The notes beneath the pieces were generated by a model. That model was not told where the DNA came from, made no database searches, and was given only the letters and a program-made list of their open reading frames with translations. A stretch of 37,402 bases of DNA, taken from NCBI GenBank assembly GCA_033791305.1, contig JASJGW010000124.1, positions 1 through 37,402 of the forward strand. The letters are read 5' to 3'. A program made the translations under genes and the position numbers. This DNA comes from Gammaproteobacteria bacterium. Lineage in GTDB: Bacteria > Pseudomonadota > Gammaproteobacteria > UBA9214. This document shows, piece by piece, positions 8,176-33,745 of the stretch. Every line of letters begins with the position of its first letter. Position 1 is the first letter of the stretch.

Positions 8176-8271
8176 GTCCGGGGGCTGCCCGGTCTTTTTC
8201 TTGTGTGTTGTCAGGTATTCAGGTACAAATAAAATCCTGTTGCAGGCAGTTTTAAACCAGAGACAGTTATC

Positions 8272-9090
8272 ATGACCACAACTGAGCCAGAAAATATAAT
8301 CGAGGTAGAAAACCTGGTCGCACATTATGGTGAACGCGTGATCCTCAATGATATCAACCTGGGTATCCGGACAGGCGAAATCAGGGTCATCATGGGTGGC
8401 AGCGGCTCGGGTAAAACCACCTTAATGCGGAATTTGCTGGGTCTGAACACCCCCAGTTCTGGCAGTATACGCATCCTTGGTAAGGATATAACCAGAATCA
8501 GCAAGCGCGAGCTGTATGCAATCAGGCGAAAGATGGGCGTCGCTTTTCAGGGTGGAGCCCTGCTGGGTTCGATGTCTGTGGCCGAAAATATTGAATTGCC
8601 CCTCAGACAACACACCAAACTGGATGAGAGCACCATTCGCATCATGTCCCGCATGAAGCTTGAGGTTGTCAATCTCGCAGGTTTCGAGAATTTGATGCCA
8701 TCGGAATTGTCCGGTGGCATGCTGAAACGGGCCGCACTGGCGCGTTCTATTGTGATGGACCCGGAAATGCTGTTCTTTGATGAGCCCTCTGCCGGACTTG
8801 ATCCGGTTGTTTCCGCAGAGCTGGATGAGTTAATCCTGCGACTGAAAGATGCAATGAATGTCACCATTGTGGTGGTGACGCACGAGCTTGAAAGTGCCTT
8901 CAAGATTGCGGACAGGATTACCGTGCTGGGGCAGGGCAATGTGCTGATGACGGGGACGGTGGATGAAGTGCAACACAGTGATAATGAGGTGATTCAGGAC
9001 ATGCTGAATCGACGACCCAGAGATGAAATCGTCAACGCGGAAGAATACCTGGCGCGACTGACCGCAGACCGGGAACAGCAACGCATATAA
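8272..9090 (+). CDS. mlaF: MlaF-like ABC transporter ATP-binding protein
   Basis: It has Walker A GGSGSGKTT, signature LSGGMLKRAALARSIVMDPEMLFFDEPSAGLDP (compare E. coli MlaF LSGGMARRAALARAI...FDEP) and H-loop VVTHE. It converges on mlaC. Confidence 0.8.
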   Translation: MTTTEPENIIEVENLVAHYGERVILNDINLGIRTGEIRVIMGGSGSGKTTLMRNLLGLNTPSSGSIRILGKDITRISKRELYAIRRKMGVAFQGGALLGSMSVAENIELPLRQHTKLDESTIRIMSRMKLEVVNLAGFENLMPSELSGGMLKRAALARSIVMDPEMLFFDEPSAGLDPVVSAELDELILRLKDAMNVTIVVVTHELESAFKIADRITVLGQGNVLMTGTVDEVQHSDNEVIQDMLNRRPRDEIVNAEEYLARLTADREQQRI

Positions 9091-9153
9091 ATAAATACTG
9101 CTCTGCTGCGTTGCTACCCGGGCTTTCCGACGCCACCCCCGGGTTCCCTGCGC

Positions 9154-9756
9154 TTACGTGGGCTGGCTTTCAAGCTCCTTGACCTTGACCTTCATTTTGC
9201 TGATCAGGCCATCAATACCATCTTTGCTTACAATGTTCTGATAGGAACTGCGATAGTTACTGATCAGGCTGATGCCTTCAATAATCACATCGTAGACCCA
9301 CCATTCACCGTTTTTCTTCTGGTAGACCTTGTAGTTAATCGGGATATCGGCACTGGCGGTGAGTATCAGGGTCTCGACAACGGCCTTCTTTCCCTTGACC
9401 TTTTCTCCCGGATAATCCACTTTTTCATCGGTGTAAGCTTCCACACGGCCAATGTAGGTGTTCTCGATCAGTTGGGCAAACAGCTGGACAAATTCCTGCT
9501 TCTGTTCACTGGATGCCTTTTTCCAGTTGGTGGCCAGGGTGCGTTGTGACATGGCGCGGAAGTCGAAGCGAGCATTAATGATCTTCCGCATTTCTATGCG
9601 CCGGGTAGCCTGGTCCAGTCCCTTGTTCTGGAGAAGGGTGAGAATGCTATCGACGGAGCCACGAATGGAATCCGTCGGTGACATCTCTGCAGACGCAAAG
9701 GTTGCCGCTACCAGGGTGATGCCGACGGTCAGTATCAGGAGCAGTCGTTTCAACAT
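9154..9756 (-). CDS. mlaC: MlaC/Ttg2D periplasmic phospholipid-binding protein
   Basis: It has the signal peptide MLKRLLLILTVGITLVAATFASA, then the toluene-tolerance Ttg2D pattern (RFDFRAMSQRTLATNWKK...QKQEFVQLF...YDVIIEGISLISNYRSSY). Confidence 0.85.
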   Translation of the reverse strand: MLKRLLLILTVGITLVAATFASAEMSPTDSIRGSVDSILTLLQNKGLDQATRRIEMRKIINARFDFRAMSQRTLATNWKKASSEQKQEFVQLFAQLIENTYIGRVEAYTDEKVDYPGEKVKGKKAVVETLILTASADIPINYKVYQKKNGEWWVYDVIIEGISLISNYRSSYQNIVSKDGIDGLISKMKVKVKELESQPT

Positions 9757-9794
9757 AACAAATACCTCGTAATGAATGATGTTCAACAGGTTCT

Positions 9795-10625
9795 CTAGTT
9801 TTCCACCTTGTTTTGGCGGTACTGGGTCCAAGCATCCCGGATGAACAGGTAAGGATCAAGGGCATCTCTCTTGATGCCCTCGTAGGTATCCTTGTCGAGC
9901 GCGACCTGGTTGACCGTTTCCAGGATGATTGCGGCCCAGTAATCCCGGTCTTCCCACAGGTAATAGATCAGGTCCATACGAGAGTCGGCCAACAGGCCAA
10001 TCCCGTCCCTGACGCTGGATGGCCCGAAGAAGGGTAACACCAGGTAGGGTCCCGGACCGATGCCGTAATACCCGAGTGTCTGACCGGTATCCTCTTCCTT
10101 CTTTTTGAGGTTGAAGTGGTCCTTGGCCGTGTCAAAGAAACCGCCGATTCCGAGTGTGGTGTTGACGCCAAACCGGGTCAACTCGTTACCGGCATCCGCA
10201 AATTTTCCTTGCAGGCCGGCATTAATCATCCTCATAGGGGTAGTCAGGTTCGAAAAGAAGTTGCCAATACCCAGCATCAGGGGCTCCGGCATGATCCAGC
10301 GGTACCCCTTTGCAACCGGCTTTAACAGGTAGAAATAGAGTTTATCGTTGAACCAGAACGTGCCCCGGTTAATTATCTCGAGTGGATCATAGACATCGAG
10401 TTCTTCATCCTCATCATCCAGCCAGGGCTGATCTTCATCCTCAAGGTCGTCGAGTTCTACAAATGTTTTCTCATCGCTGCTATCAGCCTCGTCTGCTGCT
10501 GCCAGGATAAGCGCAGGATTGGTGCTCTCATGTTCAGTGGTGGTTGCAGACGTGAGTATCGCGTTCGCGTTGACTCCTAAAGCGGGGAGTGCCAGTGCCA
10601 TAACCAGTAGAAGTAACTTTTTCAT
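9795..10625 (-). CDS. mlaA: MlaA/VacJ-family protein (no lipobox Cys)
   Basis: DPLEIINRGTFWFNDKLY...GNFFSNLTTP...TTLGIGGFFD...LGYYGIGPGPYLVLPFFGPSSVRD aligns with E. coli MlaA (DPLEGFNRTMYNFN...GMGGFIDVA...GPYVQLPFYG). Confidence 0.85.
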   Translation of the reverse strand: MKKLLLLVMALALPALGVNANAILTSATTTEHESTNPALILAAADEADSSDEKTFVELDDLEDEDQPWLDDEDEELDVYDPLEIINRGTFWFNDKLYFYLLKPVAKGYRWIMPEPLMLGIGNFFSNLTTPMRMINAGLQGKFADAGNELTRFGVNTTLGIGGFFDTAKDHFNLKKKEEDTGQTLGYYGIGPGPYLVLPFFGPSSVRDGIGLLADSRMDLIYYLWEDRDYWAAIILETVNQVALDKDTYEGIKRDALDPYLFIRDAWTQYRQNKVEN

Positions 10626-10646
10626 GATGTATTTTGCGGTGTTGTA

Positions 10647-11093
10647 CTATTCGGTTTCAAAGATGTATTTGCTGACCAGTTCTTCCAGACTGATCGATGA
10701 TTCTGTTTCTTCGATCTCATCACCTGCTGCAAGAAAAATATCCGATCCGCCCGGTGTGAGCTTGATGAATTTATCGCCGATGATTCCCGAAGTGCGGATA
10801 GATGCAATACTGTCATCTGTCAGTTCCACTGTTTTCTCGATATTCAGGTGTACCACGGCTTCATATTCTCCGGCGTCCAGTTCAATCTTGCTTACCTTGC
10901 CGACAACAACGCCCGCCAGTTCGATCGTTGTCCCTTCCTTCAGGCCGCTAATCGAGGTAAACCGGGCGGTAACCGGGTAGGTCTCATTTGCGAAGGGATC
11001 TATATCACCCATCTTGACGGCCAGCCAGGAGAAGCTGATAAAACCCGCCAGCAGGAATATTCCGACGATGAGTTCTAGACTTGTTTTTTTCAT
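10647..11093 (-). CDS. mlaD: MlaD (MCE-domain) protein
   Basis: It has the N-terminal TM anchor LIVGIFLLAGFISFSWLAV, then the MCE-domain pattern YPVTARFTSISGLKEGTTIELAGVVVGKV...GIIGDKFIKL. Confidence 0.85.
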   Translation of the reverse strand: MKKTSLELIVGIFLLAGFISFSWLAVKMGDIDPFANETYPVTARFTSISGLKEGTTIELAGVVVGKVSKIELDAGEYEAVVHLNIEKTVELTDDSIASIRTSGIIGDKFIKLTPGGSDIFLAAGDEIEETESSISLEELVSKYIFETE

Positions 11094-11132
11094 GGCTTGC
11101 TCCGTTTGCTGCTTGTGTGCCGTGACGTGTGC

Positions 11133-11924
11133 TTACGAAAGTATCAGTGAGCCTATCAGATAGTCCCAGACAAGAATGGTGACAGAGGCAAACACCACGG
11201 CATCAGTTGTGATGCGGCTGACACCTTCTGCACCGAATACGCCGGTCCGGCTGAGGTGAAGAAAGTATCCCTTGTAGGTGGTTATCCAGACAATCAGCAG
11301 ACCAAAGATGAGTGATTTGATCAGGCAGAGACGAATATCAGCCCATTCCACACTGTTATACATCCCCTGAAAATAGGATCCTTCTGAAACACCCAGTAAT
11401 ACGACCCCCGCCAGATAACCGCCAAATATTCCAACCACATTGAACATAAATGCCAGCACTGGCAGGGAAATCAGGGCGGCGACAAACTTGGGTGCAACCA
11501 GAAACTTCAGGGGATCGATTGCCATGCACTCAAGGGCATCAATCTGTTCGGAATGACGCATGATGCCGATTTCGGCACAAATGGCCGAACCCGCACGACC
11601 GATGACCATCAATGCGGTCAGTACCGGTCCCAGTTCCTGTATCAGACTGAGGGCCACCGCAGAACCAAGCAGTTCCTCGGAGCCGAATTGTTTCAGGTTA
11701 TGGTAGCCCTGCAGGCCAAGCACCATGCCGGTAAACAGACCAACGATAAGAATTACGGTAACCGAGCGGGCTCCGAAGAAATAGATCTGCCTGACAACAG
11801 GATAAACCGAGTAGGGTGGTTTGAATATGCAGGCGATGGTATCGCCAAAAAATATGCCCATCCTGCCCGTGGTTTCCAGCAGATATAAAAAATCTCTTCC
11901 GAGTTTGCTGAGCAGGTTTATCAT
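11133..11924 (-). CDS. mlaE: MlaE ABC transporter permease
   Basis: The 263-aa polytopic protein has QIYFFGARSVTVI, LKQFGSEELLG, ELGPVLTALMVIGRAGSAICAEIGIMRHSEQIDALECMAIDP, characteristic of the MlaE family. Confidence 0.9.
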   Translation of the reverse strand: MINLLSKLGRDFLYLLETTGRMGIFFGDTIACIFKPPYSVYPVVRQIYFFGARSVTVILIVGLFTGMVLGLQGYHNLKQFGSEELLGSAVALSLIQELGPVLTALMVIGRAGSAICAEIGIMRHSEQIDALECMAIDPLKFLVAPKFVAALISLPVLAFMFNVVGIFGGYLAGVVLLGVSEGSYFQGMYNSVEWADIRLCLIKSLIFGLLIVWITTYKGYFLHLSRTGVFGAEGVSRITTDAVVFASVTILVWDYLIGSLILS

Positions 11925-12006
11925 GATTGCAGGATTCTGTGGATGGCTGCGGTGAATGCAGGGGGCTGTTGTGGTCGCTTCTGTCTGGCATTAACCTTGA
12001 TAAGGG

Positions 12007-12333
12007 TTATGAATTCAGTCCTTCATCCACCGAGTTGTACAGGGTGAATACCTTGTCGAGACGCGCCAGTTCAAGGACACGTCGGGTAGGCTCGCTGACT
12101 GCGGCCAGGCCAAACTGGCTGCCGTTTTTCTTTGCTGCCTGTAGTGCTTCAACGAGCGAGGCAACGCCGGAACTGTCAATATAGGTGACCTCTGAAAGGT
12201 CAACGATTACCTTGCTGGTGGATTCGAAGCATTTAAGCAGGATTTCCCTTGCGACCGGTGAGCTTTCCAGGTCAACCTCGCCCGTGAAGGCAACAACGGA
12301 GGCACCTTGCCTTTCCGAAATTTCATGTTTCAT
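12007..12333 (-). CDS. STAS-domain anti-sigma-factor antagonist (RsbV/SpoIIAA/HsbA-like), in the MlaB position
   Basis: The 108-aa protein has VVAFTGEVDLESSPVAREIL, and VTYIDSSGVASLVEAL contains the DSSG phospho-serine motif of SpoIIAA-type STAS proteins. Its ATG lies 1 nt after the stop of the upstream gene. Confidence 0.85.
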   Translation of the reverse strand: MKHEISERQGASVVAFTGEVDLESSPVAREILLKCFESTSKVIVDLSEVTYIDSSGVASLVEALQAAKKNGSQFGLAAVSEPTRRVLELARLDKVFTLYNSVDEGLNS

Positions 12334-12334
12334 T

Positions 12335-14092
12335 TCAATTGGTTCTCCCGATAAATTTAACCATGCGTAACAGATTCCCCTTGCCGGAGTGTACCGGGAG
12401 GTACTCGACCTCGTCCATAATGTCGTGGATAAGGCAGATGCCCAAACCGCCGGGCCCCAGCTCTTCTGGCCATTTCGGTTTCATTTTCTTCGGGTCGACC
12501 GGGGGCGCTGAATCCTGCAAATCAAACTGGATTATGCCGTCTTTACAGACTATTTCCAATGTCGCCTCGCCATCTTCGGTACCTTTATAGGCATGTCGGA
12601 CCACATTCTGGCAGGCTTCTCCAACGGCAATAACAATATCCGTGGCCAGTGACCGGGTGCAGCCGCAGTCTTCGCAGGCCTTGCTGACTATTTCACGTAC
12701 TGCCTGTAATTCATCTGCGCGTGCAGGAAATGTGTGCCGGACGATCATGGTGGCCTGATTATGCCGTATATCTTCTTTTAAACAAGGGTTCGTGGCGTCA
12801 ATGGCAATCAGGGTAATATCGTCGTGACGCTTGCCCTCAGTATTGCCCAGGACAGAGATGATGGCTGCAATGCGCTCAGCAACCGGGACATCGATGCGTT
12901 CCCGGATGATTTTTTTGAATCCATCAATTCCCAGCCGACTGCCATCTTTCAGATCACCCTCGGTGACGCCATCCGTAAATATATACAGGGTGCCACCATC
13001 CAGGTTGAATATTTCTTTCCGGATGCCGCCATTTCCGGCAACCAGCGGCAGGATCCCCAATGGGGGGGCGCTGGCAGAGATGGGTGTAAATGATCCGTCC
13101 TGTGCGTGCAGCAAGGGAGGTTCATGTCCGGCATTGGCCAATTGCACTTCACCTGTTGCCGGATCAAGCAGGCCGCAGGCCATGGTGACAAACATGCCGT
13201 GGATGGCCGTTTCACACAGTTCTCTGTTTATGGTTGCCAGCAATACATTAGGTTCGTGCAAGGTCTTGCCAAGACAGCGAAACAGGCTGGATGTCTTGGA
13301 CATCAGCAAGGCAGCGTCCATGCCTTTCCCTGAAACATCACCAAGACTGAAGTAAATACGTCCGTCATTCAGGTCAAAAAAGTCGTAAAAGTCACCGGAC
13401 ATTTCATGGGCAGGCAGGTAAATGCCGCAGACAGGGAAGGGTGCGGGCCGGCGAGCAGGCAGCAGGCTGCGCTGCATTTCTGTGGCAAGTTCCAGTTCCC
13501 GACTGAACCGCTCCTGTTCGACCAGATCCTCGGCCATATGTGCATTGTGGATGGCCAGCGCAGCTGCCGAGGCCAGTGTTTGCAGCATCAGCAGGTCTGT
13601 ATCGGAAAACAGGCCGCTGGTATCGAGCTTGTTGACCAGTTCAATGGCACCGATTTTTCGCGTATGCACTGTCATGGGGGTGCACAGGATAGAACGGGTT
13701 TGAAAACCGGTGAAATCATCGACAGAATGATCAAAGTTCGGATCCTGTTGTACATCCCTGACAATGCGACTGCTGTTTTCGGAGACGCACTGACCGACGA
13801 TACCTTCACCGGCCTGCAGGGATATTCCACGTATGTCTACCGGGCCGGCGCTGGCCTTGCAAACCAGCGAGCCGTCCTCGTCGTTCAGCAAAAACAGGGC
13901 GCCGCCCTCTGCCTTGACGAACTGCACAATCAGATCGAGTGCTTTCTGGATGGTTACTTCGATGTTGAGCGTGACGGCCAGATGGCTGCTCATTTTTGAC
14001 AGTAATTCAAGGTGGCCGGAAACGTTGGCCGATTTTCGGCGATCGATGCGTTTGGGATCCCGGCGGTCCATGTCTGGAGGAGTGTTGCTCAT
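12335..14092 (-). CDS. GAF - PP2C/SpoIIE phosphatase - RsbW-like HATPase three-domain fusion protein
   Basis: There is an N-terminal GAF-like region. The PP2C motifs are SGDFYDF, GDVSGKGMDAAL, FTDGVTEG and HDDITLIAID. The C-terminal anti-sigma/Ser-kinase module has GEACQNVVRHAY and GPGGLGICLIHDIMDEVEY. Confidence 0.85.
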   Translation of the reverse strand: MSNTPPDMDRRDPKRIDRRKSANVSGHLELLSKMSSHLAVTLNIEVTIQKALDLIVQFVKAEGGALFLLNDEDGSLVCKASAGPVDIRGISLQAGEGIVGQCVSENSSRIVRDVQQDPNFDHSVDDFTGFQTRSILCTPMTVHTRKIGAIELVNKLDTSGLFSDTDLLMLQTLASAAALAIHNAHMAEDLVEQERFSRELELATEMQRSLLPARRPAPFPVCGIYLPAHEMSGDFYDFFDLNDGRIYFSLGDVSGKGMDAALLMSKTSSLFRCLGKTLHEPNVLLATINRELCETAIHGMFVTMACGLLDPATGEVQLANAGHEPPLLHAQDGSFTPISASAPPLGILPLVAGNGGIRKEIFNLDGGTLYIFTDGVTEGDLKDGSRLGIDGFKKIIRERIDVPVAERIAAIISVLGNTEGKRHDDITLIAIDATNPCLKEDIRHNQATMIVRHTFPARADELQAVREIVSKACEDCGCTRSLATDIVIAVGEACQNVVRHAYKGTEDGEATLEIVCKDGIIQFDLQDSAPPVDPKKMKPKWPEELGPGGLGICLIHDIMDEVEYLPVHSGKGNLLRMVKFIGRTN

Positions 14093-14196
14093 CTACGTCC
14101 AGTGTCCTGTTGGCTTCATGCCCTTGCCGGGGATGGCATCAATAATGGACGCCGTCATGTGGACATTGTCTGTACTGGTCTGAGTCTGTTGTTAAA

Positions 14197-14273
<77 letters not shown>

Positions 14274-14274
14274 T

Positions 14275-15276
14275 TTAACAGTTGCGACTAACAGAAAATT
14301 CTGCGAGGCCGTACAACGCGTCCTTGTAGACTGATTCCGGTAGTGGATTCAGTGCCTCGATGGCGAGATCCGCTTCCCGCTGTGCGGCCTGTGCAGTGTA
14401 CGGGATGCCCCCGGTTGATTCAATAATCGCACACACTACCTGCATGTTATCATGTCCACCGTTTTCGATTGCCTTGCGTATCAGTTTTGCCTGGCTTGGC
14501 GTGCCCTTGTGAATGGCGTGGATGAGAGGCAGGGTTGGCTTGCCTTCGGCAAGGTCATCTCCAACATTCTTGCCGGTGTCTTCGGGGGAAGCACTGTAGT
14601 CAAGCACGTCATCAATTAACTGGAATGCAATACCCAGATGCAGGCCGTAATTGGCTAAAGCAATTTCGATCTGTTCAGGTTGCCTGCTGAGAACGGCGCC
14701 AATCTGGGCGGCCGCTTCAAACAGGCGTGCGGTCTTGCGGCTGACGACATCCATGTAACGGTCTTCGGTCGTCTCGGCATCGTGGCAGTTAAGCAACTGC
14801 AGTACTTCACCTTCTGCAATGGTATTCGTGGTGTGGGACATGATCTCCATGATGCGCATGTCATTGGCTGCGACCATCATCTCGAATGAGCGTGAATACA
14901 GAAAATCACCGACCAGTATGCTGGCTTCATTTCCCCACAGGGCATTGGCGGTCATATTGCCGCGTCGCAACTGGGAGGCATCCACGACGTCAGCATGGAG
15001 CAGGGTCGCGGTATGGATAAATTCGATCACGGCAGCCAGGGTGATGTGCTGAGTACCCTTGCAGGAACAGGCATTAGCCGCCAGCAATACCAGCATCGGG
15101 CGTAGCCGTTTGCCGCCACTACTAATAATATAGTTTGACAGCTGGTTAATGAGGGCGACATCACTGTGCAGTGAGCTGTGTATCAGCGCATTGACTGCTT
15201 CCATATCATCCGAGAGCAATTGCCGGACCGAATCAATATATGGCGCATCAGTATAGGTTTTAACGAGTTTTAGCAT
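14275..15276 (-). CDS. ispB: Octaprenyl-diphosphate synthase IspB (first Asp-rich motif reads ADVVD)
   Basis: [25 protein letters not shown]...[14 protein letters not shown]...[11 protein letters not shown]...[20 protein letters not shown] is collinear with E. coli IspB. The start at M22 (15276) is chosen by alignment to the E. coli N-terminus. Confidence 0.9.
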
Positions 15277-15379
15277 ATTTACGTGATTCTTCAAGCAGCT
15301 TACCGCAGCCCGGGATAGTCCTGGCTGACACTCTGGCAAGTTTAACGGGGTTATCTACCTTGTGCCAGAAGGGATTTGA

Positions 15380-26718: not shown

Positions 26719-27123
26719 TTATTTCCAGCAGTGGCTGTTTAGCGCGTTGTCAGTTACGGATTTTTGTCCCAGCGATGTCAGTGTGAAGGTCGCGCATTTG
26801 TCGGTGTCCTGCCTGCCAAGACTGGTGGGGGCGGCGCTGACTGTAAATGAGACATTATTGGCGTTAACAATCGACAGTGTGTAGAAACCGCCATCGGTAG
26901 TGGCACCATACACCTCGGATATGCTGGTTGGGTAGGTGCCCTGGTCTGAATAGGACCTTTCCATTCTGTTGGCCAGTTCCAGCAGTTGCCCCATGCCTTC
27001 TGCCCTGCGCGATTTCTTTACATGTTCCATGTATGACGGATAGCCGACCGTTACGATAATTGCAAGGATCGTAATGACTATCATGAGTTCAATTAATGTA
27101 AAGCCGCGGGTCTTTTTTATCAT
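26719..27123 (-). CDS. pilE: Type IV minor pilin PilE
   Basis: It has the prepilin leader and cleavage site MIKKTRG/FTLIELMIVITILAIIVTVGYPSY, and a C-terminal Cys pair (DKC...HC). The ORF-track start at 27228 overlaps pilY1, so the ATG at 27123 is preferred. Confidence 0.85.
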   Translation of the reverse strand: MIKKTRGFTLIELMIVITILAIIVTVGYPSYMEHVKKSRRAEGMGQLLELANRMERSYSDQGTYPTSISEVYGATTDGGFYTLSIVNANNVSFTVSAAPTSLGRQDTDKCATFTLTSLGQKSVTDNALNSHCWK

Positions 27124-27160
27124 CCTGTTTCTCTTGTGCCATGCGTGGCACTGTTTACGA

Positions 27161-30100
27161 CTATTGTCTGAGGTCAATCCAGTTGCGTTGACCCAGTACC
27201 GCGTTCGGACCAAGTGACTCCAGGTCAATCGTTTCGATAGTAATCACATCGGCCGGTACTGCATCGGCAGTGAATAGGTTGGTGTTGCCACCGTCAGACT
27301 GGTTTTTGTCGATGTCAAGCAGATACTGCTCGGGGATGACACTGCCGGGTACATAATCTCGATACTGCGCGTACTTCCGCAAAATGTCTCCCAGCGCTTC
27401 ATCCGCATACAGGGCGTCCAAAGCCAGTAATGCCTGGTTGAGTGCGGCCTCGGATGTGGCAGAGTTGATGATGTTTTGCAGCGCGACAAATTCAGCCAGT
27501 ATCCGGGTGCCTTCCAGGGCGTCTGCCCAGACCTTGTACTGGCCAAGGTTGAGGCCACGCTGTTCCCGGGTCAGGGCACTGCTGTAATTCGCATCGCCGT
27601 AACAGGGAGTCAAGGCGTTCTCTGCACGCTGGATATTATCGGCCAGATCACTGTAGTGCCAGAAGATGGCGGCTTCAAAGAGCAAGCCGCTCTCATAGGC
27701 GTCGCTGTCTTTCTCGAAGAGGGTGGTTGTCTTATTGCCCTTGCCCAATACTATGGGGTTGAAGGCCCTGGCAAAGGTGCCGCCCTTGCGGATGCTGCCC
27801 TTGTGGGGCAGGTTATCCGGGGGCTGTAGCGTCATATTTGCCGGGTCGAGCAACTGTACGGTCAGCGCCCCGTTGCGCCAGCGATAGCCGGTATAGCCGT
27901 TTTCCTTGTACTCCGTGATATGCAAGCTGAGTGCCGGGTCCTTGATGTAGCGATCCGGTACCGGCAGGCTGAGTTGTTGTGCGCAGGATAAATTGGTATA
28001 TGGGTTGTCAGTCTCGATTAACGTCCGGGTATCAAGTACCGCAGAATCCGCTGCAGCCAGGACCTTGGGATCGGAATAGCAGACCTTTACCCTGGGGTCG
28101 TGCAGTCCGAGCACACACTGCGAGCGGGTACCATGTACGCCCTTTCTCAGGATGGCATCCTCGTCGAACAGGATCCGCAGTGTTGGATTCTTGCTGTTCT
28201 CCGGGCACACCCACTGCAACGGGTCACCATTAAGGTCAGTGTTATTGGCGATGCTGGCCAGGGTAAAGATGACCGGCTCTCCATACTTGGGATCTCGAAT
28301 GTTCTCCGCTGGTACGCCGAGTTCCAGTTGGGCCGCAATGTGATCCTGGTACTGAATGAATTCATTCATCTTTGGGGTAGCATTATTCAGGCCGCCTTCC
28401 CAGATCTTGCAGCCAATTTGCAGGCTGCCACGCTCGGAGAGATCGGCATTGGCCAGCACGACCATGAAGGGTTTGTCGTCAGCGAGCAATTCACCGTTTG
28501 CACCATCGAGTTTATAGGTTTCAGACTCGGGAACGATGATCGTTTTCTCGCATTTATCGATGGTGCCGTCTATCTCATCAATGATAGCCCGGTAGAATGG
28601 ACCGAAGCGCCCGCCATCTTCCGGACAGACATTTTCCCCGTTAACTACATCAGGTGTTTCCAGTATAGGCGTGGGCGTTGATGGCGTGAGGGTGTCATAG
28701 GCCCGGTTGAGTTCTGCCTCTACGGCCTCGATGCACCTGTCGTTTACCAGAATCCGCTTGTTGTTATTTGTGTCACTGCAGGCATTACTCACAATATCGG
28801 TGCTGGCAGAGGTGGGTGCCAGGCTGGCAAGCCCGCGGCGTGGTTCCAGTTCAAACAGGTCGACATAGGAAATACCGTTGATGCTGTCGTATTCATGCAC
28901 GAGACCGTCAACGGTTCGACTGAGTCCGTCATTATCTGCATTTTGGTAACCTGCGCTGTGCTTGAAGATCAGGTTGGGTGCCGTCATGCTGCCATTGGGG
29001 TTGTCTGTGACTACGTCAAGGTGGCCAAAGAGCAGGGGACCATAGTTGGTAATCGGTGGTAACGGCAGGATGAGGCCATTGACGAACATCTTGTCAATAC
29101 CATCCCGCAGGCGTACAAACGCCGGTTGTGAAATGTTGCCCTCACCAAGACTCAGACCGACCGGCGGAACACCACTGGCTGTGTCCAGTGCATCAAGTTG
29201 GGTATCGCCATTCAGGTTGAATACCACCTTATTGGCGCTGGCACCGGTCAGGTAATCCAGTGACATCATCCAGCTGTTGCCGGCCAGGGTTCGCTGGCCA
29301 CACTGGTGTCCAGTCGGGTTGGTGGTGACAAACTGTACCCGGTTGGCACGGATAAAGGGGGCGCCGACCAGGCGTTCACCACAAATGGGAAACTCCAGCC
29401 GCCAGCCACTGAGCAGGGATGCCTCACAAGAAGTGTCACCGGTATTACAGTAATAATTGACCGGCTTGTTGACCGGGGTGGTCCGCACGGTCTTTGTTTC
29501 ATTATTATTGGCGAAGTAGGCAGTAATCGGAGAGCCGACTGGGTTCAGCGCCTGTGTCTGTAAATCGGCATCCTCTAAAGGATCAAAGCTCGTCTCAGTG
29601 CCGTCAATCCATGATTGCTTGATGTGGATACCATAGATGGCCTGGTTAAAAAGAGAGTTTCCGCCGGTATCTACTGCATCATTCAGGGCATCAACCTGGC
29701 TAAAGATACTGCCGGTACCGAAGTAGATGATATAGCCGCCGATTGATGAATGCGGGTGCTTGACGACTGCTGGTGTGTTGGTGATCGGCAGATTGGGGTT
29801 ACCATCGAACACCTTGCGGGCTGTCGAGCTGGCAGGGTCGGCCTTGTCCAGCCTGAACATCCACAGGTCGCCATTGATGTCGCCTGCGAAGGCCGTTTCG
29901 ACGGTCAGGTCAGTTTTATCAGTATCGACCAGTACCGGTGCGGACAGGCCACCATTGGCCAATGTGTCGATTGAATGGATAATATTCGGATCTGCCAGAC
30001 TGACCATTAACAGGGCAGCTGGATGACTGGTATCCGTGTTGCATTCAGAATTATTGATACCGGTACACGCCTCCTTGTAGCCGCTGCCGGTGAAAACGTA

Positions 30101-31321
30101 CCAGTCCGGCGCCGCAGCAGTGCCCAGCGCGGCAATTCGAGGTGCGCCATAGATGTGCCCGAAATGTCCACCTGTCTTTTCAAACAGGACCTTGTCGCTG
30201 GTGTAGCCCGGTGTTGTTACATCCAGTGCGAACAGGCCTTCAAAGCCGGCACCACCACCACCGGCGAGGATCGTGCGCCATTCACAGGCGCTGATATTGA
30301 TGGGGGTGGTATCGGTTGGGTTGCCACCAACGATAGTGTCTGTGCAGGTAGTATGGTCGGGGTCGACCTGCGCCGAGCTGACAACCATTTCACCATCGAG
30401 ATAGTGGGTGTGCTGGTAGCCGGGTTGTGCCAGCGGGAACAGATTTTCAATGACCATGGAAGGGATATAGCCCATGACTTCCGAGCCGTCTGCCTCGGCA
30501 AAGAAATGCAGTATGCCATCGTTGGCAGGCGTGGCGATCACGCCAGTACGATTGCGGTTGGCATGCCTGAACCCGGCATAGCCATCAAAAGAGGTAATCA
30601 ACTCACGCGGTGGCCCGATGTAGACGGGTGTGTTGGTAATATCCCCCAGCAGGCTGTAGCGTTGGCGCAGGAAGCCGTTAGGCTGGTCGGTTTCATTGCT
30701 GCGATCACCGCGAATAAAGTTAACAACCGGGCTAAAGTAGTTGTTATTCTGGTTGGTGGCAGGATCAACAGCATCGGCAGGGTCACCATCACCATTGGGG
30801 TCATTGATTGTTTCCGGGTCCAGTGAGATTTTCTGCGCAGCGGTCAGATTGTCCCAGAGAAATGAAACCTGGTTCGAAGTGTTATAGGTGAAGAGCCGCC
30901 GGCCATCGGTGGCTTCTTCCTTCCAGTAATCCGTTATGTCCTGTTCCTTTTTGAGGAACGTGGCGCGTGCCATCCAGGTCTTTGTCGAGTCGCCGGCCAA
31001 CGCAATCAGTGCGGTATCATCTCTGGAACCCACCAGAGTTGTATGGGTGTGGCCAGTCAGCGTATGGTCGAGTGAGCGTGAGCCATTTACACCAATGTCA
31101 TATTCGATGAGGTCACCCTGCCAGGCACCGTTCTCAAACCATGGACGGTAGGCCTTGGTTGGACCGTCGAGAAGGTCCCTGCTTTTCAGGGCATATTCAC
31201 CGAGCGTAATTGCAGGCGTGCTGACGGGATCGAAGACCGCGACGGCATACAACAGTCTGCTGATAACCACCGTCATGGCTGCGATGACCTTCCAGAGTGT
31301 ATGTTTATATTTTGTCTTCAT
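27161..31321 (-). CDS. pilY1: PilY1/PilC-family pilus tip adhesin with a long C-terminal extension
   Basis: It has a signal peptide. The PilC beta-propeller signatures lie at residues ~210-750: LLGDITNTPVYIGPP, ANDGILHFF, WRTILAGGGGAGFEGLFALDVTTP, AFAGDINGDLWMFRL (Ca-site-like), IYFGTGS, GWRLEF..GERLV. Then ~630 further residues follow. Confidence 0.85.
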   Translation of the reverse strand: MKTKYKHTLWKVIAAMTVVISRLLYAVAVFDPVSTPAITLGEYALKSRDLLDGPTKAYRPWFENGAWQGDLIEYDIGVNGSRSLDHTLTGHTHTTLVGSRDDTALIALAGDSTKTWMARATFLKKEQDITDYWKEEATDGRRLFTYNTSNQVSFLWDNLTAAQKISLDPETINDPNGDGDPADAVDPATNQNNNYFSPVVNFIRGDRSNETDQPNGFLRQRYSLLGDITNTPVYIGPPRELITSFDGYAGFRHANRNRTGVIATPANDGILHFFAEADGSEVMGYIPSMVIENLFPLAQPGYQHTHYLDGEMVVSSAQVDPDHTTCTDTIVGGNPTDTTPINISACEWRTILAGGGGAGFEGLFALDVTTPGYTSDKVLFEKTGGHFGHIYGAPRIAALGTAAAPDWYVFTGSGYKEACTGINNSECNTDTSHPAALLMVSLADPNIIHSIDTLANGGLSAPVLVDTDKTDLTVETAFAGDINGDLWMFRLDKADPASSTARKVFDGNPNLPITNTPAVVKHPHSSIGGYIIYFGTGSIFSQVDALNDAVDTGGNSLFNQAIYGIHIKQSWIDGTETSFDPLEDADLQTQALNPVGSPITAYFANNNETKTVRTTPVNKPVNYYCNTGDTSCEASLLSGWRLEFPICGERLVGAPFIRANRVQFVTTNPTGHQCGQRTLAGNSWMMSLDYLTGASANKVVFNLNGDTQLDALDTASGVPPVGLSLGEGNISQPAFVRLRDGIDKMFVNGLILPLPPITNYGPLLFGHLDVVTDNPNGSMTAPNLIFKHSAGYQNADNDGLSRTVDGLVHEYDSINGISYVDLFELEPRRGLASLAPTSASTDIVSNACSDTNNNKRILVNDRCIEAVEAELNRAYDTLTPSTPTPILETPDVVNGENVCPEDGGRFGPFYRAIIDEIDGTIDKCEKTIIVPESETYKLDGANGELLADDKPFMVVLANADLSERGSLQIGCKIWEGGLNNATPKMNEFIQYQDHIAAQLELGVPAENIRDPKYGEPVIFTLASIANNTDLNGDPLQWVCPENSKNPTLRILFDEDAILRKGVHGTRSQCVLGLHDPRVKVCYSDPKVLAAADSAVLDTRTLIETDNPYTNLSCAQQLSLPVPDRYIKDPALSLHITEYKENGYTGYRWRNGALTVQLLDPANMTLQPPDNLPHKGSIRKGGTFARAFNPIVLGKGNKTTTLFEKDSDAYESGLLFEAAIFWHYSDLADNIQRAENALTPCYGDANYSSALTREQRGLNLGQYKVWADALEGTRILAEFVALQNIINSATSEAALNQALLALDALYADEALGDILRKYAQYRDYVPGSVIPEQYLLDIDKNQSDGGNTNLFTADAVPADVITIETIDLESLGPNAVLGQRNWIDLRQ

Positions 31322-31336
31322 GGGACTTTCCGTAAA

Positions 31337-31870
31337 TCAGGGGACCAGTGGGTCGGTGACAACCACTGATTGCACAGTTCGTTTTGCGCCCCTGGAGCTT
31401 TCACTCTGGGCGGTGATGAGGAACACCTGAACGATAGAGCCGGGTGCCGGGGTGATAGTGCCGCTATAGGAACTGTCTTCACCGTCATCGTTATCAGTGC
31501 CCGCATTCAGGATGATGTACTCACCGGTGCTGCCATCGGGCAGGGAAACGGTTTTCCTGGTAAAACTCCATACCAGATCTGATGGTTCGACATCTCCGAT
31601 GGTGTGATAACCTGCGGTCGTTGGGTACGAGAGGCCATCGGATTCTACCTTCAGGATATCTTCTACCCCCCTGGCAAGGGTGTATTCCGCAGTGTTCAGT
31701 GCCATGGTCTGGAACTGGGTGTTGCCGGCCATCAGGTTCTCAAGGCGGGAGACATTCATTCCGAAGATGCCAAGCATGGTCAGGATCAGCAGGAAAACCA
31801 GTGCCATAAACAAGGCAGCGCCAGCTTGCCGGTGACTGAATCGGTAGGTCTTGTGTCGGCTCCTTTGCAT
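31337..31870 (-). CDS. pilX: Type IV minor pilin PilX
   Basis: RQAGAALFMALVFLLILTMLGIFGMNVSRLENLMAGN is a PilX N-terminal domain pattern. The gene sits between pilW and pilY1. Confidence 0.8.
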   Translation of the reverse strand: MQRSRHKTYRFSHRQAGAALFMALVFLLILTMLGIFGMNVSRLENLMAGNTQFQTMALNTAEYTLARGVEDILKVESDGLSYPTTAGYHTIGDVEPSDLVWSFTRKTVSLPDGSTGEYIILNAGTDNDDGEDSSYSGTITPAPGSIVQVFLITAQSESSRGAKRTVQSVVVTDPLVP

Positions 31871-31884
31871 TTGCTGTCTCAGAC

Positions 31885-32979
31885 CTATTTGCTATTGCGC
31901 AGTTTTACTGTAGATGTATAGAGCTTGCGGCGATAACCCCGGTTAGCGGTATCTGCTGACATGTAGTCCGCATCCATGGTGTAGGTGTTGCTGTTGGTAT
32001 AACCGGTTTCCGGACATTCGGCGCGGACGAGCAACCAGACGCGTGCCGCAACCACGTCTTCCCAGCCGGGTTTTGTTATATCGGTTGAGTCGATCTCGTC
32101 GGCGTTGTAGTAGCGGTCAACAACGTGGTCGCCACTGGTGTCGATGCCGTATTTTATTTGCAGGTTATCAGCGCCATAGGCCACTTCTTCTGCAGAAAAT
32201 GCTCCGCTGCTGTCAAGGCTGACACGATAGAGAGACGGAACAGCGCCATCGGCAGGGCATGCAGAAGTATTGCTGGATGCGCCAATATAGTAGGCATGCG
32301 CTATCAGTTCGGACGTTCTGATAGCCGGTGCAACAAGATTGTTCTCGGCGCTTTCACTATATTTCCCCTGAAACAGGCGTCCCCTGAACAGCGATGAGCG
32401 CAGAAAGTATTCATTCGGGTAACAGTCCTTGATGGTCGTATTCGGCGCAGATTTATTGCACGGCAGGGGTTTGGTCATACTGCCGATAATGGACGGGTGT
32501 GCGTAGCGTACCAGCAGCACGTCGCCCCGGACATAAGAAGCGGGGTTGCCGGCGTCCTCTTCTATACAGCCATAGTTACCACCTGATGGTTTTGCCGTGC
32601 CTGAAAGGTCCAGGCCATACACGCTGCGGCCCAGCATGCGTAACCAGTCTGATGGCCCGGTAGTGGTGCCGGTGCACTTTTCTGCAGCCGCATGATTGAC
32701 GCCCTGTGTGCCTGCTATTGTGTTGATATCTGCATTGCCACCCCAGTATCCGGCGCGGCGCAGGTCGGAGACGAGCACATCCATGGCGTAGCGGCCATTT
32801 TCCTGAATGCGTGCGAGGACATTCAGTATAATTATGCTTTTCTTCGAGCTGAGAAATATCTGGCCAATCCCGGCAAGCAGAATCAATGTGATAATCAGGG
32901 CTACCATCAGTTCTATCATGCTGAAGCCGCGGCTGCGGTAGTATGGTTTGGTTAAACATTTGCGCGCGCGCGTAGTCAT
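31885..32979 (-). CDS. pilW: Type IV minor pilin PilW
   Basis: It has the prepilin motif SRG/FSMIELMVALIITLILLAGIGQIF. The ATG at 32979 forms an ATGA overlap with the pilV stop. Confidence 0.85.
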   Translation of the reverse strand: MTTRARKCLTKPYYRSRGFSMIELMVALIITLILLAGIGQIFLSSKKSIIILNVLARIQENGRYAMDVLVSDLRRAGYWGGNADINTIAGTQGVNHAAAEKCTGTTTGPSDWLRMLGRSVYGLDLSGTAKPSGGNYGCIEEDAGNPASYVRGDVLLVRYAHPSIIGSMTKPLPCNKSAPNTTIKDCYPNEYFLRSSLFRGRLFQGKYSESAENNLVAPAIRTSELIAHAYYIGASSNTSACPADGAVPSLYRVSLDSSGAFSAEEVAYGADNLQIKYGIDTSGDHVVDRYYNADEIDSTDITKPGWEDVVAARVWLLVRAECPETGYTNSNTYTMDADYMSADTANRGYRRKLYTSTVKLRNSK

Positions 32980-33479
32980 TCCGAAAGAACCAGTCGAAAG
33001 CAACGAAGGTCATTCTTGTCCTGTGGCGGGCAATTCACGCCGCTGGCGCCAGTACGATTTTCGTCCCAGCGAACTGTAATGGTGTGAACCAGTGGCAGAC
33101 CGGCAGTCCGGGTGATGTCCCCCTGTCCTCCGGGTAGCAGGGCGATGGCTGCTTTCCACTGGCTGAGATCGAATGTTGCCATTTGTGCTGTGGTGCAATC
33201 CGCTAATGTGCAGTCGGGAACCGATCCTGTCACAGCATCGGAGCCAATGAGGTAGTCGCTATCAATGGTTCCCCGGGAGTTGGCCCGCATGCGTTCAGAG
33301 ATGTCATACGCCAGCATGGTGGAAGTGGTACGCATGCTGGCCATTTCGTTGGATCGCAGGCCGGTTGTTTGCAGGGCAGCCAGGCCCAGCAAGCCAATTG
33401 AAAGGACCAGCAGGGCAATCATTACTTCCAGCAGGGTAAAGCCATGCTGTTTGTTCCCGGAATGTTTGATTCTGTGCAT
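32976..33479 (-). CDS. pilV: Type IV minor pilin PilV
   Basis: KQHG/FTLLEVMIALLVLSIGLLGLAALQ is the PilV pattern. The ATG at 33479 is preferred over 33512. Confidence 0.85.
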   Translation of the reverse strand: MHRIKHSGNKQHGFTLLEVMIALLVLSIGLLGLAALQTTGLRSNEMASMRTTSTMLAYDISERMRANSRGTIDSDYLIGSDAVTGSVPDCTLADCTTAQMATFDLSQWKAAIALLPGGQGDITRTAGLPLVHTITVRWDENRTGASGVNCPPQDKNDLRCFRLVLSE

Positions 33480-33499
33480 CACGATTATCGATATCCCTG

Positions 33500-33745
33500 T
33501 TAACGGGTGCATGCACGTTCGGTAACTGTTGTGTGACCTTGCCGGGTAATGATGATGTTGCGTTCCTGGTAATGGTCACAATCATCTGCCTTCAGGGTGA
33601 GGGTGTGCGGTCCATTGGCAGTCTGTCCGGTTGGCAGGAAGCGGATATCACTGTTTCCTGCGGTTAAAATGCTCTTTTCCGGACAGATGGTTGTGCTGGT
33701 CGTGATCAGCAGTTCAACCAGAGAAAAATACTGTTGTCTTTCCAT
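33500..33745 (-). CDS. fimU: Truncated FimU/GspH-family minor pilin remnant (probable pseudogene)
   Basis: MERQQYFSLVELLITTSTTICPEKS keeps only ~9 residues of the pilin helix, and position -1 is Tyr rather than Gly. The C-terminal DIRFLPTGQTANGPHTLTLKADDCDHYQERNIIITRQGHTTV matches the GspH/FimT C-terminal pattern. It is about 80 aa, against roughly twice that length for FimU as I recall it. Confidence 0.5.
   Translation of the reverse strand: MERQQYFSLVELLITTSTTICPEKSILTAGNSDIRFLPTGQTANGPHTLTLKADDCDHYQERNIIITRQGHTTVTERACTR

Follow-up and report, generated by a model that had tools for sequence, protein, structure and literature searches.

Why should a STAS protein that comes with a kinase and a phosphatase of its own be encoded directly in front of the permease gene of a lipid transporter? 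The question is raised by contig JASJGW010000124.1 of assembly GCA_033791305.1 (37,402 nucleotides, here called the window), from a gammaproteobacterium of the UBA9214 lineage. On its minus strand the order is a gene for a fusion of GAF sensor, PP2C phosphatase and RsbW-type kinase domains, then STAS, mlaE, mlaD, mlaA and mlaC (Table 1). The original prediction, made from the sequence, read this as a rearranged Mla operon in which a phospho-switchable STAS protein occupies the MlaB slot and, as a working hypothesis, gates the MlaF ATPase. Here we describe the gene content and order of the locus, its linkage across proteobacterial classes, the chimeric ancestry of the transporter, the fold class of the STAS protein, and the conservation of its phospho-site and of the catalytic motifs of its enzymes. 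The reading that we think probable is that the module is an accessory of an MCE-type lipid ABC transporter, with the STAS protein serving as a phosphorylation-gated MlaB analogue that acts on MlaF.

The fusion protein has 2098 homologues at E <= 1e-10. A pattern scan with one genome per species found 586 loci with relatives of the fusion, 80 of which were retrieved; these were searched with all of the window proteins, and their open reading frames (ORFs) were clustered. The closest complete genome is CP070821.1. Sixty-seven loci have at least 2.5 kilobases (kb) downstream of the fusion gene and are evaluable. The recurrent linkage that the original prediction named as a check is present in 61 of the 67, distributed over the Alpha-, Beta- and Gammaproteobacteria: STAS is followed directly by an mlaE-type permease gene, and an mlaF-type gene is also seen in 59 of those 61. 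The exact arrangement of the window, including the convergent mlaF, occurs in 12 loci. A further 47 carry the fusion (or split phosphatase and kinase genes), STAS, and genes for an MlaE-type permease (MlaE') and an MlaF-type ATPase (MlaF') in that order on one strand. Two reach a contig end after mlaE, three have the fusion and STAS only, and three, all from Marinicella, have the fusion only. Linkage of the switch module with Mla genes is thus far beyond chance.

The 47 one-strand loci belong to Alphaproteobacteria (Dongia, Ferrovibrio and other Rhodospirillales), Betaproteobacteria (Azonexus, Dechloromonas and Propionivibrio) and several gammaproteobacterial groups. Between their fusion proteins and that of the window the identity is 39-53%, and their flanking genes vary by clade. 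Many of the distant loci have a candidate permease start either overlapping the STAS stop or no more than 15 nucleotides (nt) from it, a closeness that suits subunits made together; in close relatives of the window the STAS–mlaE spacer is 15-96 nt. The linkage was also examined from the permease side, using Dongia MlaE' as query, and all three loci obtained (L083-L085) carry a switch–transporter operon, with the order SpoIIE, HATPase_c_2, STAS, MlaE, ABC_tran, MlaD and ABC_trans_aux and STAS–MlaE gaps of 1-16 nt. Across the retrieved loci and L083-L085, the module has no conserved neighbour from any other gene family in different clades, sigma factors included, and no sigma-factor gene lies next to it in the window. 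A lone ECF/PhyR-like sigma gene was seen at L085:10323-10892 (-), about 4 kb downstream on the opposite strand, and is not conserved elsewhere.

The transporter genes of the window have two different origins. Neighbour-joining trees with 100 bootstrap replicates place the window MlaF with the switch-linked ATPases of distant loci (100/100; 56-75% identity, median 65%); its identity to MlaF of E. coli, A. baumannii and P. aeruginosa is 38-47%, and its best NCBIfam model, NF008809, scores 216 bits against a cut-off of 441, so that it does not qualify as a canonical MlaF orthologue. The window MlaE groups instead with MlaE of E. coli, P. aeruginosa and A. baumannii (100/100; 45-48% identity) and is only 28-37% identical to the permeases of the distant switch-linked loci; its clade and its Pfam match assign it to the MlaE family, and NF033619 scores 272 bits, just below the cut-off of 315. 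It is accompanied by a short single-MCE MlaD together with MlaC and MlaA, all of the E. coli kind. At the distant loci, the genes after those for permease and ATPase encode an MCE protein (about 335 amino acids, aa) and a lipoprotein of the ABC_trans_aux/PqiC family, a set found in the 47 distant loci and in L083-L085 and not in the window.

Judged by their sequences, then, most relatives encode a system like the Mla-Pqi chimeric (Mpc) transporter of Brucella, consisting of MlaE', MlaF', a long MCE protein and a PqiC-like lipoprotein, and the window operon is a chimera in which canonical MlaE, MlaD, MlaA and MlaC are combined with the MlaF', STAS and switch of an Mpc-like lineage. The description of the locus as a rearranged Mla operon accordingly applies to the first four of these proteins and not to the ATPase, the STAS protein or the switch. 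The contrasting placements of MlaF and MlaE imply that the ATPase, STAS and kinase/phosphatase were inherited together as the membrane and periplasmic parts were exchanged, and we take this shared history as the best indirect argument for a joint action of STAS, switch and ATPase.

Features of the ATPase itself recall E. coli MlaF. LSGGM and a GGSGSGK(S/T) Walker A motif (GGSGSGKT in the window) are present in all 60 ATPases of the clade, and 54 of 59 relatives have a C-terminal extension with the motif (D/E)xY(L/M)xRL, which in the window has the form E-Y-L-x-R-L. The motif resembles Y261/L265/L266 of E. coli MlaF, residues that dock in the MlaF–MlaB groove.

The STAS protein belongs, both by sequence and in its predicted fold, with RsbV and SpoIIAA and not with MlaB, as had been proposed. 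TIGR00377, the anti-sigma antagonist superfamily, scores 79.8 bits (cut-off 53.45) and the MlaB model NF033618 scores 28.4 bits (cut-off 90), which separates it from the minimal STAS proteins of the MlaB type. Its nearest relatives by sequence are TM1442, RsbV, RsfB and SpoIIAA, with E. coli MlaB a weak match; among PDB sequences the E-values are 1.7e-16 for TM1442 and 4.8e-4 for MlaB. An AlphaFold2 model (pLDDT 97.7) has a fifth strand and a fourth helix, both of which are missing from MlaB, and the top Foldseek ranks are occupied by TM1442 (TMq 0.89), RsbV in chains of RsbV/RsbW complexes and SpoIIAA in chains of SpoIIAB complexes (TMq 0.84-0.90 overall); MlaB is 45th by fold (TMq 0.64).

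The phospho-serine motif IDSSGVASL noted in the original prediction is present. Y51, D53, S54, S55 and E62 are invariant in 72/72 related STAS proteins, and Ser54, within YIDSSG, is predicted from the alignment to be at the phospho-acceptor position of the TM1442-type STAS class, where it pairs with the D-S-x-G serine of TM1442 and with Thr52 of E. coli MlaB. Thr52 is at the centre of the E. coli MlaF–MlaB interface, and the substitution T52E weakens binding; phosphorylation of MlaB itself remained to be demonstrated (Kolich et al., PMC7367683).

Two further observations concern relatives of the STAS protein. No STAS–permease fusion was present in a search that covered the nearest STAS representatives (150) and the nearest relatives of a Dongia MlaE' (120). 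The nearest STAS relatives do include fusions to TLC/MFS transporters, to a WecG-family glycosyltransferase (with tandem STAS) and to RsbW-type kinase domains (P0173, P0227, P0206, P0135 and P0242), a hint at other non-sigma outputs for this STAS class.

In the fusion protein, 80-81 of 81 relatives keep the PP2C metal-binding aspartates D234, D237, D252, D374, D424 and D425, and the conserved kinase residues are E492/N496/H500 of the N-box, D527, and G548/G551 of the G2 box; overall these catalytic motifs (PP2C aspartates, N-box and G2 box) are invariant in 78-81 of the 81. The RsbW model NF003144 scores 59 bits, below its cut-off, and NF045505 (RssB) scores 37.6 bits against a cut-off of 700. 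At the N-terminus Pfam reports GAF and no Response_reg match, and the receiver of HsbR/CrsR-type regulators is therefore absent; the GAF domain is presumed to be the signal input. Fusion of phosphatase and kinase is optional in this family, since the kinase is a separate gene in about 20 relatives; some split relatives are 62-70% identical to the window protein, which indicates that the fusion has been formed or broken repeatedly. The separate phosphatase and kinase genes overlap in L012, L014, L015 and L018 and in about 17 distant loci (e.g. L063:7971-9667).

Put together, these features would make a simple cycle. Unphosphorylated STAS would bind the MlaF-type ATPase and enable it to work with MlaE, as MlaB does. 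The kinase domain of the fusion would phosphorylate Ser54, on the helical face of STAS, and so detach STAS from the ATPase or block its binding. The GAF-controlled PP2C domain would strip the phosphate and restore active STAS, and transport by MlaF'E-D-C-A would then follow an intracellular signal. In this scheme we infer the binding of STAS to the ATPase, the active phospho-state, the signal and the physiological effect, and the conserved linkage of module and Mla genes suggests that envelope lipid trafficking is switchable by protein phosphorylation. The slot in front of mlaE is a genuine transporter-subunit slot, because the Brucella abortus permease MpcE (of MpcEFDA, the Mpc transporter) carries an N-terminal STAS domain homologous to MlaB (PMC12436622). 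A STAS protein does therefore stand in an MlaB-equivalent slot, as the original prediction had it; the position upstream of the permease is, though, the normal one for such a subunit in the Mpc-like family.

As to the signal, two neighbours of the family offer suggestions. The GAF ligand might be a cyclic nucleotide, because several Gammaproteobacteria have a CHASE2 cyclase gene after the operon, or the GAF domain might read a lipid-metabolism cue, because the Marinicella orthologue is translationally coupled to pssA. The CHASE2 adenylate/guanylate cyclase gene stands directly after the operon, downstream of the PqiC-like gene, in L021, L028, L047, L048, L072, L074 and L080; in L019, where the transporter genes are absent, it comes directly after STAS (L019:9065-11317), and no such gene lies near the operon in the window. 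In the Marinicella-type loci (L068, L070, L073, L077, L078 and L079; e.g. L070:7155-9668) the fusion orthologue shares 37-39% identity with that of the window. The gene before it, which overlaps or directly adjoins its ORF, is pssA, for CDP-diacylglycerol-serine O-phosphatidyltransferase (TIGR00473, 113.5 against a cut-off of 107). This neighbour is a second, independent link of the sensor–phosphatase–kinase family to phospholipid metabolism.

We also consider, more tentatively, a broader version in which the ATPase, STAS and kinase/phosphatase form a portable cassette for different MCE transporters, mostly of the Mpc kind, which in the window lineage has been fitted to housekeeping Mla and has displaced mlaF and mlaB; this is possible, although we would not yet call it probable.

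A number of observations weigh against STAS as a gated partner of MlaF. By sequence and fold the STAS protein resembles RsbV and SpoIIAA, and MlaB only weakly. The kinase domain is of the anti-sigma family, so that a sigma target could be encoded elsewhere, and its G1 box is atypical, with D-x-A-x-P in place of DxGxG. The window mlaF is probably a transcription unit separate from the STAS/switch operon, on the opposite strand, and a canonical mlaF/mlaB pair could be present elsewhere in the genome, gene content having been seen within the window. Transporter genes are not adjacent in 6 of the 67 loci, so the module can exist without a transporter neighbour; in Marinicella-type loci (three evaluable and three shorter) neither STAS nor mla genes were found beside the fusion. 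Finally, a crude covariation test on distance matrices from 47 loci recovered the expected pairs, STAS with the fusion (partial r 0.58) and MlaF' with MlaE' (0.53), and gave no specific covariation of STAS with MlaF' (0.12) or MlaE' (0.09); given how crude the test is, this result neither supports nor refutes the contact.

The module might regulate the transporter by another contact or with the opposite logic: the kinase domain could bind and inhibit the ATPase until STAS displaces it, so that MlaF' would stand where sigma does in the classical partner switch, phospho-STAS could be the activator, or STAS could dock on the permease. The linkage evidence fits these variants as well. A target held by an RsbW-type domain is normally set free by STAS, partners reportedly exist for both phospho-states of Pseudomonas HsbA, and the Brucella MpcE fusion shows that STAS can be tethered to a permease. 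We nonetheless regard such schemes as unlikely, given that in the sole solved precedent STAS sits directly on the ATPase by its phospho-site face, a geometry that the conserved C-terminal motif of MlaF' fits.

Rather improbable is a conventional partner switch, with the kinase as anti-sigma factor, its sigma factor being encoded elsewhere, and with the transporter either co-transcribed or a transcriptional target. It is favoured by the matches of the kinase to RsbW models (below cut-off) and of STAS to the antagonist superfamily (above it), by the fused PP2C–kinase regulators HsbR and CrsR, which are said to act on RpoS, and by the six loci with no adjacent transporter genes. Yet in no clade does the block contain, or have beside it, a conserved sigma gene, and neither the tight stop–start coupling of STAS and permease nor the co-inheritance of the module with the ATPase, as the rest of the transporter was exchanged, is expected of a general stress switch; the alternative held open by the original prediction, a sigma switch that merely neighbours mla, accordingly loses most of its force. 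That the adjacency has no functional meaning at all, and reflects inherited synteny or chance insertion beside mla, we find very hard to credit. The loci do share ancestry, all having been found through fusion or permease homology, and a tRNA gene, a common type of insertion site, lies directly upstream in the window. But the block has been kept across three classes at 37-53% fusion identity with all of its flanks different, and in the window lineage it has been rebuilt around a different transporter with STAS still directly before mlaE. A phosphorylation-gated STAS partner of the ATPase therefore remains the reading that we prefer.

The ORF map and the Pfam and NCBIfam matches confirm every ORF, the gene order and the convergent mlaF of the original prediction, and its spacings are also correct, with a single nucleotide between the fusion stop and the STAS ATG and no terminator-like site in the gap between STAS and mlaE. 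That gap folds no better than shuffled sequence (z = -1.1). A terminator or structured RNA was sought in it, in the convergent mlaF/mlaC spacer and in the fusion-gene leader, and nothing notable was seen. Coordinates are collected in Table 1; the mlaC start given there is the likely one because family matches begin at ORF residue 26.

Table 1. Features of the switch–transporter locus in the window (aa, amino acids; nt, nucleotides).
Feature	Position	Strand	Evidence
mlaF promoter-like site	8208-8235	+	sequence scan
mlaF-type ABC ATPase (MlaF'), convergent with mlaC	8272-9090	+	Pfam/NCBIfam ABC ATPase
mlaC, periplasmic lipid carrier	9154-9756 (ORF open to 9831)	-	PF05494 2.7e-46
mlaA (VacJ), outer-membrane lipoprotein	9795-10625	-	Pfam PF04333 1.6e-69
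mlaD, short single-MCE protein	10647-11093	-	TIGR04430 OM_asym_MlaD 162.9, cut-off 135
mlaE permease, canonical type	11133-11924	-	Pfam PF02405 3.9e-75
STAS–mlaE spacer, 82 nt, terminator-free	11925-12006	-	read from sequence
STAS gene, 108 aa	12007-12333	-	Pfam STAS 2e-21
Ser54 codon, predicted phospho-acceptor in YIDSSG (IDSSGVASL)	12172-12174	-	alignment
GAF + SpoIIE/PP2C + HATPase_c_2 fusion gene, 585 aa	12335-14092	-	Pfam
RsbW/SpoIIAB-type kinase domain (HATPase_c_2), aa 455-579	12356-12730	-	Pfam PF13581 9.4e-28
PP2C/SpoIIE phosphatase domain, aa 243-432	12797-13366	-	Pfam PF07228 5.7e-40
GAF domain, aa 42-182	13547-13969	-	Pfam PF13185 (GAF_2) 9e-18
tRNA-Pro(CGG) gene, between ispB and fusion gene	14197-14273	-	Rfam

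A terminator-like hairpin ends mazG upstream of the promoter-like site of mlaF, which is probably transcribed on its own. Upstream, the operon is bounded by the tRNA-Pro(CGG) gene. The 104-nt leader ahead of the fusion gene showed no consensus promoter; transcription of the operon may continue from the tRNA promoter, or the tRNA gene may record a former site of insertion. Rfam matches over the window are limited to two tRNAs.

The flanking genes are gammaproteobacterial housekeeping genes: rsd, mazG, ispB, rplU, rpmA, obg, proB, murJ, ribF, lspA and ispH, with ileS inferred from the syntenic locus L001. In E. coli (comparison region L082, 3333710-3340065) ispB is beside the mla operon, with rplU, rpmA and obgE on its other side, and the window locus thus occupies the ancestral mla position. 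Window positions 8272-15339 are syntenic with the E. coli ispB-murA-ibaG-mlaBCDEF region. Relative to ispB, mlaF keeps its far position and opposite strand in the window as in L082; the window lacks murA and ibaG, and its E-D-(A)-C block has the reverse orientation to that of E. coli. Farther away, at 26719-33512 (-), is a type IV pilus minor-pilin cluster encoding a ComP_DUS-like pilin, a 1386-aa PilY1-like protein, PilX-like and PilW-like proteins, and one more minor pilin, which has a Tt1218-like domain.

Both halves of this system have precedents, in that a growing number of partner switches are known to have non-sigma outputs and STAS subunits of Mla and Mpc transporters are established; the combination of a partner switch with an Mla-type transporter appears to be undescribed. 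Full-text literature searches joining partner switching to Mla or MlaF and STAS gave no matches, in agreement with the original prediction, which knew of no described Mla system under a phospho-switch. Mla is not mentioned in a 2021 review on STAS-only proteins, and in a 2023 phylogenomic survey of the Mla system MlaB figures only as a STAS gene in synteny, with no link to a switch. Post-translational regulation of Mla-type lipid transporters is an open question. Whether STAS proteins of the MlaB type are phosphorylated was asked in the paper on the MlaFB structure, the kinase not being known (PMC7367683). The operon family described here is a natural system in which a STAS subunit comes with its own kinase, phosphatase and sensor, and the question becomes directly testable, including in the cultured carriers Azonexus hydrophilus and several Dongia species. 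If the proposed mechanism is correct, partner switching extends from sigma factors to an ABC transporter, and outer-membrane lipid homeostasis can be under signal control; were the portable-cassette version true as well, bulk intermembrane phospholipid traffic would be a signal-gated process.

In comparison with known systems, the window resembles E. coli MlaFEDB in having a small STAS protein encoded within the mla operon, together with MlaE, MlaD, MlaC and MlaA, and its ATPase shares with E. coli MlaF the LSGGM motif and the C-terminal Tyr/Leu extension. It differs in that the window STAS gene precedes mlaE and is itself preceded by the kinase/phosphatase, whereas mlaB is the last mla gene of the E. 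coli operon mlaFEDCB, and in that its ATPase is not a canonical MlaF orthologue. E. coli MlaB is also a minimal protein (97 aa) that lacks the fifth strand and last helix of the window STAS and has neither kinase nor phosphatase.

With RsbU–RsbV–RsbW and SpoIIE–SpoIIAA–SpoIIAB the module shares the three domain families, the conserved catalytic residues (the atypical G1 box of the kinase aside) and the D-S-S-G phospho-site. The output of those switches is a sigma factor of the same operon, whereas here the conserved neighbours are lipid-transporter genes and sigma is unlinked; unlike RsbU/RsbW and SpoIIE/SpoIIAB, moreover, phosphatase and kinase of the window form one protein with a GAF sensor in front. 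Phosphatase and RsbW-type kinase are likewise joined in one polypeptide in HsbR–HsbA of Pseudomonas, CrsR–CrsA of Shewanella, SypE–SypA of Vibrio fischeri and Rv1364c of M. tuberculosis. These regulators reportedly act on a neighbouring or fused STAS, several with outputs beyond sigma factors, the outputs being said to be RpoS, FlgM, a diguanylate cyclase or polysaccharide synthesis; to our knowledge no link of any of them to an ABC transporter has been described. They sense through a receiver or PAS domain, whereas the window protein has GAF. In Anabaena, a phospho-STAS switch, HenR–All4160, has been proposed to act on a non-sigma target in envelope biogenesis (bioRxiv 10.64898/2026.04.08.717354). 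The target there is an enzyme of polysaccharide biosynthesis, the kinase genes lie elsewhere, and the switch involves neither an MCE nor an ABC transporter.

The closest likeness in transporter composition is to Brucella Mpc, since most switch-linked loci encode MlaE-like and MlaF-like proteins, a PqiC-like lipoprotein, and an MCE protein whose roughly 330 aa include a long helical tail. The window differs from Mpc in having a short MlaD, MlaA and MlaC in place of the long MCE protein and the PqiC-like lipoprotein. Common to Mpc and the switch-linked loci is a STAS element directly N-terminal to, or upstream of, the permease. In Brucella this element is fused to MpcE and no kinase or phosphatase has been described, whereas in the loci reported here it is a free STAS protein with a conserved phospho-serine and dedicated enzymes.

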